From Candidatus Woesearchaeota archaeon (lineage in GTDB: Archaea; Nanobdellota; Nanobdellia; SCGC-AAA011-G17; GW2011-AR20), in assembly GCA_016181245.1 (NCBI GenBank), contig JACOZR010000018.1, positions 1 to 43,229 on the forward strand: 43,229 nt of DNA. The letters run 5' to 3'. The notes beneath the pieces were generated by a model that saw only the letters and a program-made list of their open reading frames with translations, made no database searches and had not been told where the DNA came from. How positions within the stretch are numbered: the first letter of the stretch is position 1; every line of letters starts with the position of its first letter. Below, one piece after another: positions 7,470-13,550 of the stretch. The position numbers and the translations under genes are program-made.

Positions 7470-7739
7470 TTGATTGTGAGCAAAATATCTTTGAAAAAAG
7501 AAGCTAGGATTAAGGAAGACATACTAAGACTTCTTTATGACAAATATCCCGAGTTTCATTATACGAGTGTTGTTTCTTATGAGACTTTAAGGAATAATGA
7601 ATTTATTTTGAGATTGTTAAATGAATTGACAAAAGAAGGGCTTGTTTCTTTTATTGATGAAAAAGGAGGGAGGGGTATAAGGAAAAAATGGTGCTTAAAG
7701 AAGGAAGTTTTTGAAAAGTATAAAGAATTACTACCCTAA
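7470..7739 (+). CDS. Small winged-helix protein
   Basis: ILRLLYD...[19 protein letters not shown] wHTH-like pattern; overlaps the lonB C-half stop convergently. Confidence 0.65.
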
Positions 7740-9089
7740 CTTTTTCAAAAGATCCTTTTTTCCTGACCAGTCTAAAGCATATTTTAATACTTCTTGAATT
7801 GTGTTTACAGGGATAATTTCTATCTTTTTCTTGCTTTCTGGAGATAAAACAACATCTTTTAGGTTTGTTTGGGGGATTATAACTTTCTTTATGCCCGCTT
7901 CTATTGCTGCTTCTATTTTTGGAGTTACTCCTCCAATAGCCAGAACCTCTCCTCTAACTGAAAGAGAACCAGTCATAGCCACATCTTGTCTTACTGGAAC
8001 GTCCTTTAGTGCAGAAATAATCGCTGTTGCAACTGCTATGGAGGCTGAATCGCCTTCAACACCTGAGTCTGCTGTTTGTAGAAATTGAACAAAAATATCG
8101 TATTTTTCTTTGATATCTTCACCGAAGTTCTTCAAGATAATTGCTGAAACATTCTTTACTGCCTCTTTGGCTATTTTTCCTAATTGACCTGTAGCTATTA
8201 TTTCAGATTTTTTGCCTCCTGGTGTGATTTCTGATTCTATTGGGAGGACTATACCTGAGAAGCTTAATTCTGTGCCTATTACTGCTAGACCGTTAACTCT
8301 TCCTATTAATGTGCCTGTTGTGACTATGATTTGGTATTCCTTCTTGGTTTCTATGTATTTGTCTGCTATTTGCTGCTCTAGGGTTCTTGCCAATCTTTTT
8401 GCTTTTTCAATATGAATTGGTTCAACTAACTTTGATTTTTCTGCTATTGCGAAGTCTCCTGCTGCTCTTACTAGACCACCTAGTTCTCTTAATCTTAAAG
8501 TTAATTTTCCTGCTCTTGTTGATCTTTTTCTTGCTTCCTCTATAATTTTGATAACTGCGTTTTTTGAGAAATGTGGAATTTTCTTATCTTTCTTTACTTC
8601 TTGTGCTATGAATTGAGCGATCTTATAATGATTTTCTGGGGTATCATCCATTTCGTGATCCATATAAACTTCATAACCATAACCTCTGATTCTTGATCTT
8701 AATGCAGGATGCATATTTTTTACTGTCTCTAAGTTTCCTGAGGCAACTAGAATAAAATCGGTTGGAACTGGGTCGCTTCTTGTCATTGATCCTGAAGAGC
8801 GTTCTGATTGGCCTGTGATAGGGTATTTCTTTTCTTGCATGGCTGTTAAGAGCTCTTGCTGAGATCTTGGTGAAAGACTTGCAATTTCATCTACATAGAG
8901 AACTCCCCCAGATGATCTGTGGATAAAACCTGGAATTAAACGTTCATGAGCTGGAGTGCCTAAACCTCCTGAATTTTTGACTAGAATGTTATTAGCTAGT
9001 AAATTCCCTGATTCTGTTGTTAAATTGTACAAGTATCCTTTGTATGGGATTTTTTCTATTTTCTTGATTTTTTCTGTGGTGAGTTTCAT
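7731..9089 (-). CDS. lonB: LonB protease C-terminal half preceded by a 39-aa split-intein C fragment
   Basis: [12 protein letters not shown], Walker B LYVDE, arginine-finger region [11 protein letters not shown], catalytic Ser GDSAS and Lys GGVTPK. Confidence 0.95.
8973..9089 (-). mobile_element. Split intein C fragment (blocks F and G)
   Basis: [39 protein letters not shown] followed by Ser+1 (TCA at 8972-8970). Confidence 0.93.
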
Positions 9090-9195
9090 ATTAATTGATT
9101 GGATAAATGAATTTAAAAGATTAATGCTTTATTCTCTAAATGGGATTTCTTTTCCTTCTACCTTCAATATCTTAAGACTTGCTTTTTTATTCCAA

Positions 9196-10248
9196 TCATA
9201 CATCTTTTCTTTGCTGTTTGATGATTTCTAAGGAGTGTGGAGTTAAATTTAGTACTCTTAGTGTGGTTTCTTTATTTTTCGTATTAAATAAAACATCCCT
9301 ATATCTGTGATATTTTAAATTAATAAAGTCTTTTAATGTATTATTTAATCTTTCTTGTTTATATTTGCAGTATGTTAATCTTATCATTTGCACAAAATTG
9401 TAAAAATTATCTAGATCCTTGCTAATTTGTAACCTGAGCAAGCATTTGTCTGGATATTTCTTAGGATAACTTATTGAAATTGATCCTGTTCTTATATTTT
9501 TACTATTCAAATATTTTTGAATTTGAGATAGAAAGTTTATCTTATTTTCTCTTGAATTTATTGTTGTTTGTAAACCTATATCTAATGATGTCAATTGATT
9601 ATTATTTTTATGTATTGTAGGAGTTCCTAGCTCCCCCCCGAGAAAAGATGAAAAGAAGCTATCTGCTATTTTTTCGTTTATAAATATCCATTCTGGTATT
9701 TTAAATTCTATTTGTGATTTTCTCCCTATTGGTGCCCCTAATGCTTGAAATAATCTTATTACGTTTCTATTTGTATTTTGATAACACCATGAATGCCCAT
9801 ATCCTCCTGCTTCTATTATTCTTGAATTTGATTCTATTTCACTTCCGAAAATTGTTTTAAGATCTTCTCCGAACTCCTTTACTGCTTCTAATTCTGAACT
9901 TGATAGAAAAATTCCATTTAAATTACCAAATATTCCTCCGTCTCCAAATGTCGCCCCTAAAATCTTCGAAATTAATTGTACTCTTGAATCTTCTATTGTG
10001 AGGGGAATTAACCCTTTTTCTTTTAGCCAGTTAGCTGTTTGTATTGGGACTGGAATATGTTTCTTTGCATGCCACCATCTTGTTTTTCCGTATGACTGAT
10101 TTAGTAATTTTGCTATTTTTTTGTAACCAAAAGAAGGATTTTCTTCCTTGATTTTTATATATGTGTGATAGAGTCCGCATTGCTCTTGCTGTCTTGCATC
10201 GTATGTGTTGATCATATCTTGTTCTGTTAATACTATTTTGTTTTTCAT
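9196..10248 (-). CDS. Free-standing two-motif LAGLIDADG homing endonuclease with N-terminal HTH-like segment
   Basis: ILGATFGDGG and FFSSFLGGELG motifs about 100 aa apart; LGAPIGRK..IPEWI typical of intein-type endonucleases; GYKKIAKLL HTH-like. Confidence 0.9.
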   Translation of the reverse strand: MKNKIVLTEQDMINTYDARQQEQCGLYHTYIKIKEENPSFGYKKIAKLLNQSYGKTRWWHAKKHIPVPIQTANWLKEKGLIPLTIEDSRVQLISKILGATFGDGGIFGNLNGIFLSSSELEAVKEFGEDLKTIFGSEIESNSRIIEAGGYGHSWCYQNTNRNVIRLFQALGAPIGRKSQIEFKIPEWIFINEKIADSFFSSFLGGELGTPTIHKNNNQLTSLDIGLQTTINSRENKINFLSQIQKYLNSKNIRTGSISISYPKKYPDKCLLRLQISKDLDNFYNFVQMIRLTYCKYKQERLNNTLKDFINLKYHRYRDVLFNTKNKETTLRVLNLTPHSLEIIKQQRKDV

Positions 10249-10339
10249 AGTTTAATATTAGTATATGCTATTATATATAAATGTTTGTATTTTATAGTTA
10301 AATGATAACATTTAAAAATAATGAAACTTTTATAAGATT

Positions 10340-10480
10340 ATGAAAAAAATAGAGAAGGTTATGGTTTATTTTCCTGAAGATCTTTCTAAGAAGTTAAAAG
10401 AGATTGCTGAGAAGAATACTAGATCTATTTCGGGGCAAGTAGTTCATTATGTAAAACAGGGAATTAAGATGGAAGATTAA
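10340..10480 (+). CDS. Arc/CopG-like ribbon-helix-helix DNA-binding protein (46 aa)
   Basis: Below the ORF-track cutoff; translated by hand: MKKIEKVMVYFPEDLSKKLKEIAEKNTRSISGQVVHYVKQGIKMED*. TATA (TTTAAAA) at about 10311-10317. Confidence 0.85.
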   Translation: MKKIEKVMVYFPEDLSKKLKEIAEKNTRSISGQVVHYVKQGIKMED

Positions 10481-11497
10481 TTAAGATATTGTGATAACCC
10501 TATCAAATCTTGTCAATTTCTGTGCTTCTTTGTATATTATTTTTCCAAATCTTCTTACTGCCACTTTATGTTCCGGTGTTACTATTAATATTTTTCCTTT
10601 TTCTGTTATGAATTTTATTAGTTTTCCTTTGTAAAAATAACGGTTTGCCGATAATACTTCTACTTCTTCTGTATCTTTGCCTTTTTTTCCTAAAATAAAT
10701 AATTCTTTTTTGTTTGTAAAGAAGGCTTCATATTTTCCTTTCTTGATTAATTTGTTTCTATTTTTTTCAAATAAAGGATCTAATAACCCTTTTAGTTTTA
10801 TTTCTTGTAGAGTTTTAATTTCACTTTTTCCATTTTGTATTATTTTTACTACTTTTGTGTTAGGAAAAAAAGTTTGGAGCGGGTCATGAAGTACATCGCC
10901 GAATAATGCACCTGAATGAGCCCCCGTAGCATCGATGAAAGGTGCTTTCTTTGTTTTTGCATTATCAATTAAAAGCTTTGGTACTTTAAATTCTCCGTTC
11001 ATCTTGACTCTTTTATTTACATTGATGAATATAACAAAAGCTGCTAAAAATATCATCGATGAGATTAGTGAAGCTGCTGCTAGGATATCCCCGTATTGCT
11101 TTCTTACCCACCACGGGGTTATGATTGCTAAGATAATTAAAATAAAAAAGATAATATTTTGATTTTTGAAGGAAGCCATTAATTGTATTTTTGCTTTATC
11201 TACCATCGCTCTTCCCTGACCTCTTGGGACGGTTCTTATCTTGGGAACATTTTCGTCTGCATGATTGGGGTAAGAAAGAACGTCTACTAACTTTTCTTTT
11301 GGCAACAATTCTGCTAGAGCTTGGCCTAGAATACTCTTTCCGGTTCCTGGTTGGCCGATTAATAAAACATTTCTTCTTTGCTCTGCTGCCTTTTTTATGA
11401 TATTCTTGGCATTTTCCTGGCCAACTACTTGATCTATAATTCTTTCTGGAACTTTTATTTCTGATGTAGATTTAAAGTTGAGAAGATCTTTTGCCAT
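10481..11497 (-). CDS. lonB: LonB protease N-terminal half fused to a 130-aa split-intein N fragment
   Basis: DQVVGQE, Walker A GQPGTGKS, two TM helices, DATGAHSGALFGDVLHDPLQ, then intein sequence to the stop. Confidence 0.95.
   Translation of the reverse strand: MAKDLLNFKSTSEIKVPERIIDQVVGQENAKNIIKKAAEQRRNVLLIGQPGTGKSILGQALAELLPKEKLVDVLSYPNHADENVPKIRTVPRGQGRAMVDKAKIQLMASFKNQNIIFFILIILAIITPWWVRKQYGDILAAASLISSMIFLAAFVIFINVNKRVKMNGEFKVPKLLIDNAKTKKAPFIDATGAHSGALFGDVLHDPLQTFFPNTKVVKIIQNGKSEIKTLQEIKLKGLLDPLFEKNRNKLIKKGKYEAFFTNKKELFILGKKGKDTEEVEVLSANRYFYKGKLIKFITEKGKILIVTPEHKVAVRRFGKIIYKEAQKLTRFDRVITIS
10484..10873 (-). mobile_element. Split intein N fragment (blocks A and B)
   Basis: Block A TFFPNTKV (Thr codon ACT at 10873-10871); block B ILIVTPEHKV; ends KEAQKLTRFDRVITIS*, the usual split position. 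Confidence 0.92.
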
Positions 11498-11549
11498 AAC
11501 TATATTCTTAGAGATATAGTTTAAAACTATTTCGTTTATGTATTAAGAA

Positions 11550-11813
11550 CTAGATTACCTCTTCTTCTGCAATGACAATGTAATCGCCTATTGCTATTAC
11601 AGATGAAAAAGGAACCATTAGAAGATTGTCTTTATTTTTTTCTAGTTCTAAGCCTTCACAATAACCTGTCGGATTTTTTAGAAGTATATGAATAATTTCA
11701 CCTGTTTTCATTTCAAACTCTATGTCTGCGGCTTCACCAAACTTTTTACCTGTTTTAGATACTATAGTTTTTCCTAAAAGTTGCTTAGAATATTTTCTGT
11801 CGTCTTCTTTCAT
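11550..11813 (-). CDS. PRC-barrel domain protein (CdpB-like)
   Basis: LLGKTIVSKTGKKFG...VPFSSVIAIGDYIVI. Confidence 0.9.
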   Translation of the reverse strand: MKEDDRKYSKQLLGKTIVSKTGKKFGEAADIEFEMKTGEIIHILLKNPTGYCEGLELEKNKDNLLMVPFSSVIAIGDYIVIAEEEVI

Positions 11814-11899
11814 ATTAAATCTGCTTAATTTGAACTTGTTTATAAATATTGTTGTTTTTATAAAGTATTAATTGAACCCTTAGTATTTAATTATTATTT

Positions 11900-12292
11900 G
11901 ACCCTCAGACCATCATTTCTCTTGGAACTTGTGTATTTTGATTTACTTCTTATGGAAATCTTTTAATTTGCTTATTCTTTCGTTTATGGGCTTTAAACGC
12001 TTAATTTGACTTATTTTAGATATTTTTTAATAATTTTATTTTTATTTATCAGTAATTAATAATTCATAGAATTGGTTTATATGGTCTGTATTGTTGTTTT
12101 ATTGATATTTTTTTATTTTTCTTATTATTTTTATATATAAGTTTTTCTATATTATATTATATATCTATATTATATCTATTATAAAATATATATTATATCT
12201 GATGTTACCATTATTTAGTTCTATTTGAAATGGTGGGGTTATTTATAGATTTTTTAAATTTTAATTCTTGCATAGGAAATGTAGGTGGGGGA
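11900..12292. other. Probable replication origin oriC
   Basis: ORB-like boxes: minus-strand GTTCCAAGAGAAATGATGGTCTGAGGG (11928-11902), TTCTTATGGAAAT (11947-11959), GTTCTATTTGAAATGGTGGGG (12218-12238), CTTGCATAGGAAATGTAGGTGGGGG (12267-12291). They flank a very AT-rich tract and sit directly upstream of cdc6. Confidence 0.85.
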
Positions 12293-12344
12293 GTATATAT
12301 TTTTACATAACAATACTTATAAAAGGAATTTACTTCTAAAGATT

Positions 12345-13550
12345 ATGAAAAAGGGGCTATCTAATTTCTTTGAAGAATATCTTACTAAAAACCCTCTTTT
12401 TGTTAATAAAAAGGCTTTACAAGGGAATTTTACTCCAGATAATATTTCACATAGAGATGAACAAATTAAACAATTGGCAAGTATTCTTGCACCTGCTTTG
12501 CGAATGGAAAAACCAAGTAATGTATTTTTGTATGGAAAAACTGGAACAGGAAAAACATGTGTTACTCAATACATAACTTCACAAATTTTTGACCTTAGCA
12601 AAAAAAAGAACTTGGATTTAAAGATTTGTTATCTCAATTGCAAACTAAAAAAAGTTGCAGATACAGAGTATAGATTAATGGCTGAACTTGCTAGAAATTT
12701 TGATGTTGAAGTTCCTGCTACAGGATTACCTACAGAAGAGGTTTACAAAATTTTTGTTAAGGCTATAGATAGTAATGAAAAAAAGCTTATTTTATTAATA
12801 CTTGATGAAATAGACCAGCTCGTAAGTAGAGTAGGAGATGGTGTTTTATACAATCTTACAAGACTTAATTCTGAACTTAAGAATTGTGAATTAAGCGTAA
12901 TTGGTATAAGTAACGATTTGCTTTTTACAGATGATTTAGACCCTAGAATAAAATCTAGTTTGAGTGAAGAAGAGCTTGTATTTCCCCCTTATAATGCAAT
13001 TCAATTACAAGATATTTTGAGAGAAAGATCTGCTATAGCTTTTCGTGAAAATGTAATTGAATCAGGCGTTATTGAGAAATGTGCTGCTTATGCTGCAAGA
13101 GAACATGGAGATGCAAGAAGAGCTTTGGAACTTTTGAGAGTTTCTGGTGAACTTGCAGAAAGATCAAATAGTGAAATTATAAAAATTAAACATATAGATG
13201 AAGCAGAAGAAAAAATTGAGAAAGATACTGTGCTTGATGTTGTTAAGACTCAACCGAAACAAAGTCAAATTGCCCTATATTCTATTTTAAAAGTTTGCAC
13301 CAATGAAAATCATATCTTTACAGGAGATGTTTATGATTATTATAAAGATATTTGTAGACAGGTTGGTGCAAAATCATTAACACAAAGAAGAATTAGTGAT
13401 ATTATAGCAGAGTTAGACATGTTTGGGATTATACATGCCCGTGTTGTTAGTAAAGGTAGATATGGTAGAACAAAAGAGATTACCTTAGGTATTCCGTTAT
13501 CAACTCTTCCAAAATTAGAGGAAACATTGAAGGAGGGTCTTGGTCTTTAG
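12345..13550 (+). CDS. cdc6: Orc1/Cdc6 replication initiator
   Basis: Walker A GKTGTGKT, Walker B ILDEID, GDARRA sensor 2, C-terminal wH SKGRYGRT. Start moved to ATG 12345 (TATA at about 12316-12324). Confidence 0.97.
   Translation: MKKGLSNFFEEYLTKNPLFVNKKALQGNFTPDNISHRDEQIKQLASILAPALRMEKPSNVFLYGKTGTGKTCVTQYITSQIFDLSKKKNLDLKICYLNCKLKKVADTEYRLMAELARNFDVEVPATGLPTEEVYKIFVKAIDSNEKKLILLILDEIDQLVSRVGDGVLYNLTRLNSELKNCELSVIGISNDLLFTDDLDPRIKSSLSEEELVFPPYNAIQLQDILRERSAIAFRENVIESGVIEKCAAYAAREHGDARRALELLRVSGELAERSNSEIIKIKHIDEAEEKIEKDTVLDVVKTQPKQSQIALYSILKVCTNENHIFTGDVYDYYKDICRQVGAKSLTQRRISDIIAELDMFGIIHARVVSKGRYGRTKEITLGIPLSTLPKLEETLKEGLGL

Follow-up and report, generated by a model that had tools for sequence, protein, structure and literature searches.

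The window analysed here, a 43,229-nucleotide stretch of a contig from a Woesearchaeota-like DPANN archaeon, carries its single lonB on two genes, which raises the question of how a complete LonB protease is made. An initial annotation of the letters alone had proposed that a split intein joins the two products. Our reading, which we hold to be very probably correct, is that a naturally split class 1 intein breaks lonB and that protein trans-splicing restores it.

Anatomy of the divided lonB locus

The features of the locus were collected in Table 1. The initial annotation had described lonB as two genes (a 208-aa extein with a 130-aa IntN, and a C half opening with a 39-aa IntC), with a LAGLIDADG gene and an antisense RHH gene between them and a TATA-like element ahead of the C half. 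All elements of the two genes were recovered in place, both intervening ORFs were present with their families supported by fold or profile matches, and the TATA-like element was located at 9111-9118, at the genome-wide modal distance from the ATG.

Table 1. Features of the divided lonB locus in the window
Feature	Position	Strand	Basis
N-precursor gene (338 aa): LonB N-extein + IntN	10481..11497	-	ORF; TAA stop 10481-10483
N-extein, LonB 1-208, ends DPLQ	10874..11497	-	sequence and alignment
IntN, 130 aa, Thr1, block B TPEH, without cysteine	10484..10873	-	sequence, alignment, family conservation
RHH (CopG-like) gene, 46 aa	10340..10480	+	ORF and Pfam RHH_5
Free-standing LAGLIDADG homing endonuclease gene, 350 aa	9196..10248	-	profile and fold matches
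C-precursor gene (452 aa): IntC + LonB C-extein	7731..9089	-	ORF and profile matches
IntC, 39 aa, ends Lys-Asn, without cysteine	8973..9089	-	sequence, alignment
C-extein, LonB 209-621, first residues SGGLGTP, 413 aa	7734..8972	-	sequence, profiles
TATA-like TTTTAAA	11520..11526	-	first T 29 nt before N-precursor ATG
TATA-like TTTTAAAT	9111..9118	-	first T 29 nt before C-precursor ATG

The NCBIfam LonB profile TIGR00764 matched the first ORF over positions 2-196 and the second over positions 194-605 (of 608), the latter with 619.5 bits against a cut-off of 516.6, and Pfam Lon_C matched the C precursor (E 5.4e-35). The N-extein contains a GQPGTGKS motif and two hydrophobic helices, which we take, from what is known of LonB and AAA+ proteins, to be Walker A and the membrane anchor. 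Walker B, the LID domain and a protease domain with a GDSAS serine lie in the C-extein, where a lysine follows 43 residues later, the spacing of the LonB Ser-Lys dyad. Taken across both ORFs, the locus holds the traits of an archaeal LonB: full-length TIGR00764 coverage, both Walker motifs, the membrane anchor and a Ser-Lys protease. The N-precursor protein reads ...HDPLQ/TFFPNTKV...VTPEH...DRVITIS and then stops (the slash marks the extein-intein boundary), and the IntC stretch ends ...NNILVKN/SGGLGTP. Joining the exteins (208 + 413) gives the 621-aa LonB that the initial annotation had calculated, which is the length of an uninterrupted LonB from the same genus (L007). The exteins align with it codon for codon, with 91% protein identity to its residues 1-209 for the N-extein, 94% for the C-extein and 83.6% identity at the DNA level. 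The contig also encodes ArgRS and Cdc6/Orc1.

The 350-aa ORF had no Pfam LAGLIDADG match at E <= 0.1; it did match the endonuclease region of NF038162 (intein-containing RtcB, NCBIfam) with E 2.6e-24. Its model (pLDDT 93.2) gave Foldseek matches to I-Tsp061I, I-DmoI, PI-SceI and PI-PfuI, with E 1.7e-6 against I-Tsp061I and I-DmoI. Two LAGLIDADG motifs (motif 1 ...FGDGG and motif 2 ...GGELG) retain both acidic residues, with the motif 1 Asp found in 19/19 and the motif 2 Glu or Asp in 18/19 members of the endonuclease set; the ORF has both the paired acidic motifs and the double alpha-beta-beta-alpha-beta-beta-alpha fold of this family. It is colinear with the endonuclease (HEN) domain of cis Lon inteins (identity up to 43%, E to 8e-80), from which it descends. 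The 46-aa ORF matched Pfam RHH_5 with 33.5 bits against a cut-off of 26. This gene converges on the N-precursor gene, with no space between the two stops, and a 91-bp spacer separates it from the divergently oriented endonuclease gene; its promoter scored at the 99.9th percentile of the position weight matrix (PWM) described below. It is single copy in the genome, was not found in 100+ related loci and is a local addition, whose product might regulate the divergently transcribed endonuclease gene.

Genome-wide, TATA-like hexamers are most frequent at position -29 relative to the ATG, and 33% of 485 long ORFs carry one at -31 to -27. Ranked against every ATG of the genome by a PWM built from these 485 ORFs, the element of the N precursor reached the 99.8th percentile and that of the C precursor the 96.5th, the latter above the median of the matrix-building ORFs. 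Among the runs that hold the lonB region, none is on record as RNA. The earlier suggestion that the halves come from separate transcripts gains from this in-register promoter-like element before each gene, and from unrelated opposite-strand cellular genes that lie between the lonB halves in other genomes. We infer that the halves are transcribed as separate units.

Intein residues, docking and proposed splicing

IntN and IntC lie on separate genes, each fused to part of LonB, as in a naturally split intein. The window's intein has Thr at position 1, and across related loci this position is Ser in 37, Thr in 17 and Cys in 13, a nucleophile in 67/67, with positions 2-8 free to vary. Block B reads TPEH in 63/66 loci, TPKH in 2/66 and TPTH in 1/66, its T, P and H never varying among 36 N halves. 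In 66/66 loci the intein ends in Asn and Ser follows at +1, and the penultimate residue varies (K in 56, S in 7, A in 2 and R in 1). The intein thus shows the class 1 features of a position-1 nucleophile, a Thr-x-x-His block B and a terminal Asn followed by Ser (VKN/SGG). Every module had dN/dS below 1 (IntC 0.06-0.26, IntN 0.08-0.70, HEN 0.13-0.33), with dS saturated.

Usual assisting residues were absent by an alignment of the blocks by eye: Lys replaces His at G:6, Asn replaces Asp at F:4, and block F has no His. This absence extends through the split family and to the cis inteins related to it. PMC4031507 describes inteins that splice without His G:6, so that assisting residues are common and not obligatory. 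The NX-motif histidine that Ser1 inteins carry according to PMC10189870 would be a second conserved His, which was not seen in IntN. Thr at position 1 is unusual, and no experimentally tested precedent for a Thr1 intein was found in the literature.

The initial annotation had recommended Hint-domain profiles. These matched at the right places in both halves, and all scores fell under the curated cut-offs, as expected of half domains. Pfam Intein_splicing (PF14890, cut-off 35.8) gave 18.7 bits for the N half (E 0.0016) and 16.9 bits for the C half, where IntC aligned to profile positions 119-155 of 155; TIGR01445 gave 20.4 bits for IntN against a cut-off of 24.5 (E 7.9e-4). IntN also matched the Mja KlbA intein (2jmz, E 0.009). 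The Hint fold was modelled on a natural cis mini-intein relative (L093), and the window's halves were modelled as a predicted complex. The L093 model (pLDDT 92.5) forms a complete Hint domain, with the PhoCDC21-1, Mja KlbA, Pho RadA and Aes123 PolB1 inteins as its top Foldseek matches (TM up to 0.81, E 1.5e-12 against solved inteins). IntN and IntC are predicted to associate, with a docking score of 0.85 against 0.38 for the best control, a score that may be helped by likeness to solved split inteins; 58 of 80 solved complexes attained the docking mark, as did 2 of 110 mismatched pairs. Docking runs agreed in at least 92% of contacts, partner pLDDT was at least 80, and chain residues 1-41 (the 39 of IntC and the first two of the C-extein) were all in contact.

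Under trans-splicing, two separate leaderless transcripts would yield two precursors. The N precursor would be anchored in the membrane by the two transmembrane helices of LonB 1-208, a part that also holds Walker A and is followed by the 130-aa IntN; the C precursor, in which the 39-aa IntC precedes the Walker B, LID and Ser-Lys protease regions of LonB 209-621, would be soluble. Docking of IntN and IntC would complete one Hint fold, and splicing would run through oxyester intermediates: an N-O acyl shift at Thr1, attack by Ser+1 to give a branched ester, cyclisation of the terminal Asn and an O-N shift, leaving a native DPLQ-SGG bond in the 621-aa LonB. The free-standing endonuclease probably still cuts intein-less lonB alleles, carrying the whole cassette along. 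That the two halves act as a post-translational AND gate is speculation.

The alternative that survives best, which we regard as unlikely, is that IntN and IntC only hold the LonB pieces together, giving a non-covalent two-chain protease that retains the Hint domain. Enzymes in fragments that assemble without splicing are known (PMC3045599), docking is predicted here whereas chemistry cannot be, and both Thr1 and the substituted assisting residues (Lys for the penultimate His, Asn for the block F Asp) would fit a domain that does not splice. Association alone, however, would keep neither a position-1 nucleophile beside freely varying neighbours nor a terminal Asn behind a variable residue, and the cis relatives with K/S/A-Asn ends, Thermococcales included, must splice for a working LonB. 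Walker A and Walker B of the AAA+ module flank the insertion point, and an unexcised domain of 169 aa there would probably interfere with the hexamer. The trans-splicing proposed by the initial annotation is supported by residues conserved in 60+ loci, predicted docking, a Hint-fold relative and the lack of an intact lonB in the assembly. From this comparative, predicted structural and promoter evidence, we strongly infer that protein trans-splicing builds LonB from its separately encoded halves.

Contiguity and recurrence of the split

Independent contigs bridged both junctions without indels, against the misassembly of the stop or intervening DNA that had been named as a ground for refutation. 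Logan contigs crossed the stop at 10481-10483 (runs X1 and X4) and the ATG at 9089 (runs X2 and X4), with no indels listed; the four runs used for contiguity share a single source study, and the sample behind the window's own assembly may be among them. A strain variant among the Logan contigs retained the stop. The runs that hold the lonB region are groundwater metagenomes. The split is not an artefact.

Within the order, IntN was present in 38/240 genomes, a recurrence of the same split that excludes chance. Of the 39 IntN places, 33 had an open frame of 324-376 aa, and a frame of 600-800 aa occurred at none. LonB was split at model position 194-196 in 11/41 relatives, and 63/69 LonB loci of a species-wide scan had their N and C parts as separate ORFs, on one strand and in native order, with gaps of -85 to 3573 nt. 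The two ORFs overlapped by 4 nt in 20/63 of these split loci, and the endonuclease gene was absent from 10 loci. Uninterrupted, cis-intein and split states were all encountered in the comparison of related lonB loci that the initial annotation had called for, and the arrangement in the window is one state within a widespread family derived from the cis Lon intein. Among the relatives, L060 is visibly frameshifted, and L080 has its IntC and C-extein in separate ORFs.

An intact lonB elsewhere, the other ground for refutation named beforehand, was not found in the assembly, which is 82.6% complete. That completeness, together with the reduced nature of DPANN genomes and the states of L060 and L080, would leave room for lonB to be a decaying pseudogene after intein break-up, with Lon absent or encoded intact in genome regions missing from the assembly. 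We consider this quite improbable: both ORFs are intact, the extein proteins are far closer to the uninterrupted LonB than their DNA is, extein and intein dN/dS is well below 1 (though dS is saturated), and the intact two-ORF state predominates in the scan. The other split-carrying genomes in the table of 41 relatives likewise had no one-frame LonB match covering positions 2-600. One genome (G039) had a weak partial extra LonB match at positions 449-565.

Least probable of all is that the break arose in assembly or sequencing, or that an endonuclease-bearing intron is removed from the RNA to leave an actual cis intein: LAGLIDADG genes often lie within group I introns, and "Group I introns are widespread in archaea" (PMC6125680) mentions Woesearchaeota, but the contigs of all four runs agree with the window, the break is found again in dozens of genomes assembled independently, the stretch 7600-11700 gave no Rfam match at E <= 1, an ATG of its own always opens the C part at one and the same point of the intein (54 loci have an IntC of 39 aa), the three minus-strand ORFs occupy three different frames by their coordinates so that read-through could not join them, and the 4-nt overlaps and the endonuclease-less loci leave no room for an intron.

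Relation to known inteins and fractured genes

The Nanoarchaeum equitans (Neq) PolB and cyanobacterial DnaE split inteins are, like that of the window, chromosomal, with an IntC of about 35-40 aa (the canonical split site). Their halves are unlinked, have no endonuclease gene and belong to replicative polymerases, whereas the window's halves are linked. The Neq Pol intein is also archaeal (DPANN) and cysteine-less; it needs 50-70 C (PMC10189870), whereas the window's intein comes from groundwater metagenomes and uses Thr1. The split inteins Aes123 PolB1 and PolB16 OarG share the cysteine-less Ser/Thr junction chemistry, with Ser1 and the NX-motif histidine (PMC10189870) in place of the window's Thr1 and single conserved IntN His. 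The fused structure of Aes123 PolB1 (9hth) matched the fold of the cis relative L093 with TM 0.79.

The closest likeness is to the cis Lon intein (Pab, Pfu and Pho in Thermococcales, with relatives in Micrarchaeota and other DPANN archaea), which occupies the same DPxQ/SGG point of the same host protein. Insertions at this point were present in 74/88 long LonB proteins, and in 49/88 they were a cis intein matching the window's HEN module, with K/S/A/C-Asn ends. LonB-named proteins of Pyrococcus and Thermococcus carried insertions of 448-474 aa exactly there, in agreement with the earlier statement that DPxQ/SGG is a known LonB intein site. The cis form has the module order IntN, LAGLIDADG HEN, IntC, colinear with the window's modules, and shares the unusual Asn end (never His-Asn) and the YN.TTE.GN block F; Thr1 also occurs in it (13/49). 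It is one polypeptide with its host, whereas in the window IntN and IntC are on separate genes and the HEN has its own. The Pab Lon intein reportedly splices, according to one study. By these sequence comparisons, the window's intein is a split descendant of this cis form.

The organisation of the locus is that of a fractured gene as defined by Dassa et al. [quoted passage not shown] The 26 loci of that study are mainly phage DNA synthesis and repair genes, whose GIY-YIG or Vsr-like endonucleases are thought to have invaded a mini-intein; the word LAGLIDADG does not occur in its text. A GIY-YIG or Vsr-like endonuclease, a phage host and a DNA-metabolism enzyme, traits of those examples and not of the definition, are not matched by the window. 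Its host gene encodes an archaeal chromosomal membrane protease, and its endonuclease is a LAGLIDADG enzyme with a homologue in the domain that cis Lon inteins carry, so that the direction here looks like fission of a full intein.

Anatomy and integrity of the split lonB gene

Open reading frames (ORFs) of the lonB region were compared to TIGR00764, the NCBIfam archaeal LonB equivalog (608 positions), which was matched at positions 2-196 by a 338-aa ORF and at positions 194-605 by a 452-aa ORF. The latter by itself scored 619.5 bits against a cut-off of 516.6. Both ORFs, and a 350-aa ORF between them, are on the minus strand, each in a different frame. In the 338-aa ORF (N precursor) the extein, ending in ...HDPLQ, is followed by the 130 residues of IntN, which open with TFFPNTKV, include VTPEH and run to a TAA stop. 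The 452-aa ORF (C precursor) opens with 39 residues (IntC) ending in ...NNILVKN, followed by SGGLGTP. Position 1, the first intein residue, is Thr, and cysteine was found in neither IntN nor IntC. The exteins sum to 208 + 413 = 621 residues. A genome of the same genus has an uninterrupted LonB that is also 621 aa long, and the exteins can be aligned with it codon for codon, their protein identity being 91-94%. The Hint/intein HMM check proposed in the initial annotation placed the Pfam intein model correctly on both halves, at residues 272-335 of the N precursor and residues 4-39 of the C precursor (profile positions 119-155 of 155), in each case below cut-off, as is expected of half domains.

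Features of the lonB region and its neighbourhood in the window
Feature	Coordinates	Strand	Promoter matrix percentile	Basis or remark
N precursor ORF, 338 aa	10481-11497	minus	99.8	ORF listing of window
RHH ORF, 46 aa	10340-10480	plus	99.9	ORF listing; passes Pfam RHH_5
HEN ORF, 350 aa	9196-10248	minus	92.6	ORF listing of window
C precursor ORF, 452 aa	7731-9089	minus	96.5	ORF listing of window
IntN, second half	10484-10700			VEVLS...YKGKLIKF.TE.GK...TPEH
IntC	8973-9089
TATA-like element	11520-11526			example
TATA-like element	9111-9118			example
Cdc6/Orc1 gene	12285-13547			in region 11814-13547

The 350-aa ORF (HEN) had no Pfam LAGLIDADG match. It matched the endonuclease region of the NCBIfam intein-containing RtcB model (E 2.6e-24) and has both LAGLIDADG motifs with acidic residues. 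A fold search was needed, as the best PDB hit by sequence with the HEN as query was an unrelated protein (E 0.77); using the predicted model (pLDDT 93.2), the best fold matches were I-Tsp061I, I-DmoI, PI-SceI and PI-PfuI. The ribbon-helix-helix (RHH) gene lies antisense between the N part and the HEN gene, with its stop abutting the N-part stop and its start facing the HEN gene across 91 bp. It is single-copy in the genome of the window and was found in none of the more than 100 related loci, so it may have arrived with a mobile element. It also matches the ORF56 plasmid copy-control family weakly (E 7e-4, below cut-off). That it regulates the HEN promoter would be a guess. The two-gene lonB, the split intein halves and the intervening HEN and antisense RHH genes described in the initial annotation were all confirmed by the ORFs, TIGR00764, Pfam and fold.

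The lonB region was present in four DNA sequencing runs, all from one groundwater study; none recorded as RNA contained it. Contigs assembled independently from these runs span both the stop at 10481-10483 (run X1 records 7 and 8, run X4 record 31) and the restart at 9089 (run X2 record 12, run X4 record 28), and contigs crossing either point list no insertions or deletions relative to the window. A strain variant with 11 substitutions retains the stop. Since the sample of origin may be among those sequenced, recurrence among relatives is the stronger argument for real DNA. No second LonB match was found in the genome, which comprises 907,905 bases in 51 contigs and is 82.64% complete. The split arrangement in the window is almost certainly genuine. 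An intron reading was dropped, Rfam having no match in the lonB region.

Elsewhere in the window, the 470-bp AT-rich spacer before the Cdc6/Orc1 gene contains short direct and inverted repeats, and the sign of the GC skew changes from negative to positive at around 4-6 kb of the window. A replication origin may lie nearby.

Recurrence and states of the Lon intein

In a sample of 41 genomes of the order, lonB was uninterrupted in 21 and split at model position 194-196 in 11. Strong matches to the window IntN were obtained in 38 of 240 genomes of the order, at 39 places. The IntN open frame was 324-376 aa at 33 of these and 600-800 aa at none; it reached 930 or 949 aa at two places, reflecting an extra cis intein in the P-loop, and was short at four, which are contig edges. 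A species-wide scan (one genome per prokaryote species) used one block B peptide as its pattern and is blind to relatives with other block B sequences. It returned 72 loci (69 LonB and three other proteins), whose records bear labels such as Candidatus Woesearchaeota and Nanoarchaeota. Separate N and C ORFs on one strand in native order were present at 63 of the 69 LonB loci, spaced from an 85-nt overlap to 3573 nt apart. The remaining six were a cis mini-intein (L093), three contig-edge fragments and two disrupted copies (L060, L080). Full cis inteins numbered 0 of 69, a count valid for the block B pattern only; full cis forms exist in the protein collection. Comparison of related lonB loci, as earlier proposed, yielded intact, cis and split states. 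The N halves carry only the depositors' label "ATP-binding protein", by which lonB is hidden in current annotation.

A total of 88 long LonB proteins (at least 1088 residues) were found, 74 with an insertion of more than 100 residues between DPxQ and [ST]GG. Of the 74, 49 matched the window HEN module, with identities of up to 43% and E-values to 8e-80, and are colinear with the IntN-HEN-IntC order; among them are proteins named LonB of Pyrococcus kukulkanii, Thermococcus species, Micrarchaeota and Nanobdella. The residue before the terminal Asn of these 49 cis inteins is Lys, Ser, Ala or Cys and never His, and 13 have Thr at position 1. The other 25 proteins carry an unrelated intein at the same DPxQ/SGG site (slashes mark junctions), with Cys1, a His-Asn end and no Lon-type endonuclease. 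Given the same site, the HEN homology, the colinear modules and the similar Asn end, the window intein was identified as a split form of the classical Lon intein.

Further LonB intein sites were observed after the Walker A lysine (GTGK/C...HN/S) and within the P-loop (GEPG/C...HN/TGKS), with examples at loci L029 (genome G038), L036 and L097 and in long LonB proteins P0047-P0058, P0090, P0097 and P0106; some lonB genes combine a P-loop cis intein with the split intein. Locus L073 (6977-9965), whose C part is read in two ORFs that overlap (619 and 398 aa), apparently has a second intein about 70 residues into its C-extein, with a HEN related to that of the window. Other cis inteins in the genome, outside the window (C12:18481-21330; long open frames of 857 and 1190 aa), matched the window IntN and HEN weakly.

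At 36 scan loci the HEN is fused behind IntN, with the break only before IntC, and 19 of these have a 4-nt overlap with the next ORF. A free HEN gene of the window type (at least 300 aa) was counted at 14 loci, 13 being the safer figure since the L073 match is the second intein in its C part. HEN remnants were present at six loci (L104 among them cut by a contig end) and no HEN gene at ten; one locus is the cis mini-intein and two were unclassifiable. A C-extein tree was built using FastTree with a midpoint root, the intact lonB alleles being sampled from the order of the window only. One clade contained all fused forms, two HEN-less loci and the cis mini-intein. In the other, comprising the order of the window, free, remnant, HEN-less and intact alleles were interleaved, and the window was sister to an intein-less same-genus allele (support 1.00). 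This topology fits one old break before IntC and a later break freeing the HEN in the order of the window, followed by repeated HEN decay and repeated loss or gain of the whole cassette, although the direction of the breaks is inferred. In a search for a co-conversion tract, the window exteins were compared to the same-genus intein-less lonB in 90-nt bins; identity was 83.6% overall, 77.8-81.1% beside the junction and 71-90% elsewhere, with no dip at the junction, the genomes being too diverged for such a tract to stand out.

Predicted association, splicing residues and promoter-like elements of the halves

The intein complex was predicted from N-precursor residues 203-338 and C-precursor residues 1-46, using alignments of 36 and 10 rows, respectively. 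Binding was predicted with a score of 0.85, the best control scoring 0.38; among solved complexes 58 of 80 attained the mark of the pair, as did 2 of 110 mismatched pairs. Part of this score may be likeness rather than new evidence, as solved split-intein structures exist. Three runs shared at least 92% of contacts, with partner pLDDT of at least 80. In the model, residues 1-41 of the second chain, which comprise all 39 IntC residues and two more from the start of the C-extein, are in contact with IntN, residues 207-212 at the N-terminal junction included. In L093, a short spacer joins both intein halves, and its model is a complete Hint domain (pLDDT 92.5), closest among solved structures to the PhoCDC21-1, Mja KlbA, Pho RadA, TvoVMA and Aes123 PolB1 inteins (E 1.5e-12, TM up to 0.81). 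When this cis relative was aligned with separate IntN and IntC rows, MAFFT placed the second half of IntN on IntC, a resemblance that seems to reflect the two-fold symmetry within the Hint fold; the alignment used leaves out the IntC rows.

Position 1 was Ser at 37, Thr at 17 and Cys at 13 of 67 related loci; a nucleophile was always found there, whereas the next seven positions vary freely. Block B read TPEH at 63 of 66 loci, TPKH at two and TPTH at one. The last intein residue was Asn in 66/66, preceded by Lys (56), Ser (7), Ala (2) or Arg (1), the +1 residue (first of the C-extein) was Ser in 66/66, and IntC was 39 residues long at 54 loci. The conserved nucleophile, Thr-x-x-His turn and cyclising Asn are needs of splicing, and mere association would need none of them; the pattern is read as selection on the splicing residues. 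Pairwise dN/dS was below 1 in all modules (IntC 0.06-0.26, IntN 0.08-0.70, HEN 0.13-0.33, exteins 0.05-0.23), values that saturation at synonymous positions makes rough: dS exceeded 1 in almost every pair, and many pairs could not be computed. On the C-extein tree, position 1 differs between close relatives as Cys/Thr (L081/L056), Ser/Cys (L072/L062) and Ser/Thr (L077/L069). The nucleophile seems to change easily in this family.

As the organism is archaeal, a sigma-70 promoter scanner was unsuitable and a genome-derived matrix (positions -38 to -20) was used, scores being expressed as percentiles among all ATGs of the genome (table). Long ORFs of the genome have a sharp TATA-like hexamer peak 29 nt before the ATG, accompanied genome-wide by an A-rich stretch at -36 to -32. 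Such a hexamer starts at -31 to -27 in 33% of 485 ORFs, against a background of about 1% per position. This pile-up at -29 suggests that the mRNAs are mostly leaderless. TTTTAA starts exactly at -29 before both lonB parts. In three other genomes, unrelated genes, some on the opposite strand, lie between the halves (named by eye as a radical SAM-like protein, TrmB-like regulators and a secreted protein), from which we infer that the halves cannot rely on one transcript.

The main proposal of the initial annotation, that LonB is assembled by trans-splicing, is well supported by conservation, predicted docking, promoter-like elements and recurrence, if short of proven. The halves probably trans-splice to a working LonB. 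AND-gate control of LonB assembly is offered as a hypothesis.

A tentative joint reading and comparison with known systems

Natural split inteins are workhorses of protein ligation. In the split Lon family, groundwater archaea supply dozens of naturally occurring variants that differ at position 1 (Ser, Thr or Cys) but otherwise share a similar scaffold, making the long-standing question of nucleophile activation by oxyester inteins directly testable. For DPANN, a central quality-control protease would depend on post-translational ligation in a sizeable part of one order (the 38 of 240 genomes).

A joint reading, which we hold only tentatively and consider somewhat unlikely in full, would combine a series from a mobile cis intein to a host-essential split intein, every step of it surviving in present-day genomes, with a homing cassette, unusual chemistry and membrane-coupled assembly. 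The series would begin with a full cis intein; a break after the endonuclease domain would give IntN-HEN / IntC; a second break would free the HEN gene, the state of the window; and the HEN would then decay and be lost, with host genes entering the space between the halves. The free HEN would still be homing, pulling the two-gene cassette into intein-less alleles, which would explain split and intact lonB within one genus. The class 1 chemistry of the intein would be unusual: it would be cysteine-less, probably mesophilic and devoid of the penultimate His, the block F Asp and the NX His, and position 1 would exchange freely among Ser, Thr and Cys. Protease assembly would be linked to the supply of both halves, splicing taking place at the membrane.

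Literature searches retrieved no relevant paper on split inteins together with Lon protease and archaea, or with DPANN. No description was found of a natural IntN-HEN / IntC split state, nor of split inteins in Woesearchaeota or a split form of the Lon intein, in a search covering mostly open-access main texts. The Novikova survey lists ten LonB inteins, all from Euryarchaeota (PMC4760082); the search found no paper on LonB inteins beyond it, and its supplementary tables, which itemise the ten, might bear on priority. What is new is the form that the known Lon intein takes here: it is naturally split, its halves stay linked, an endonuclease gene accompanies them, and it is widespread in one DPANN lineage.

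Two sources call natural split inteins few and devoid of endonuclease domains (PMC6801210, PMC8966425), and a third calls cysteine-less ones working at moderate temperature very rare (PMC10189870). The seemingly changeable nucleophile of the split Lon family differs from the C1S mutants reported there, which were inactive. By the definition of Dassa et al. (2009, PMC2677866), the lonB arrangement in the window is a fractured gene. The cases described in that paper are mainly genes of phage DNA metabolism, whose GIY-YIG or Vsr-like endonucleases are proposed to have invaded mini-inteins. The graded series in lonB, from a cis intein with HEN to a split intein without it, is the opposite of that route proposed for phage fractured genes.
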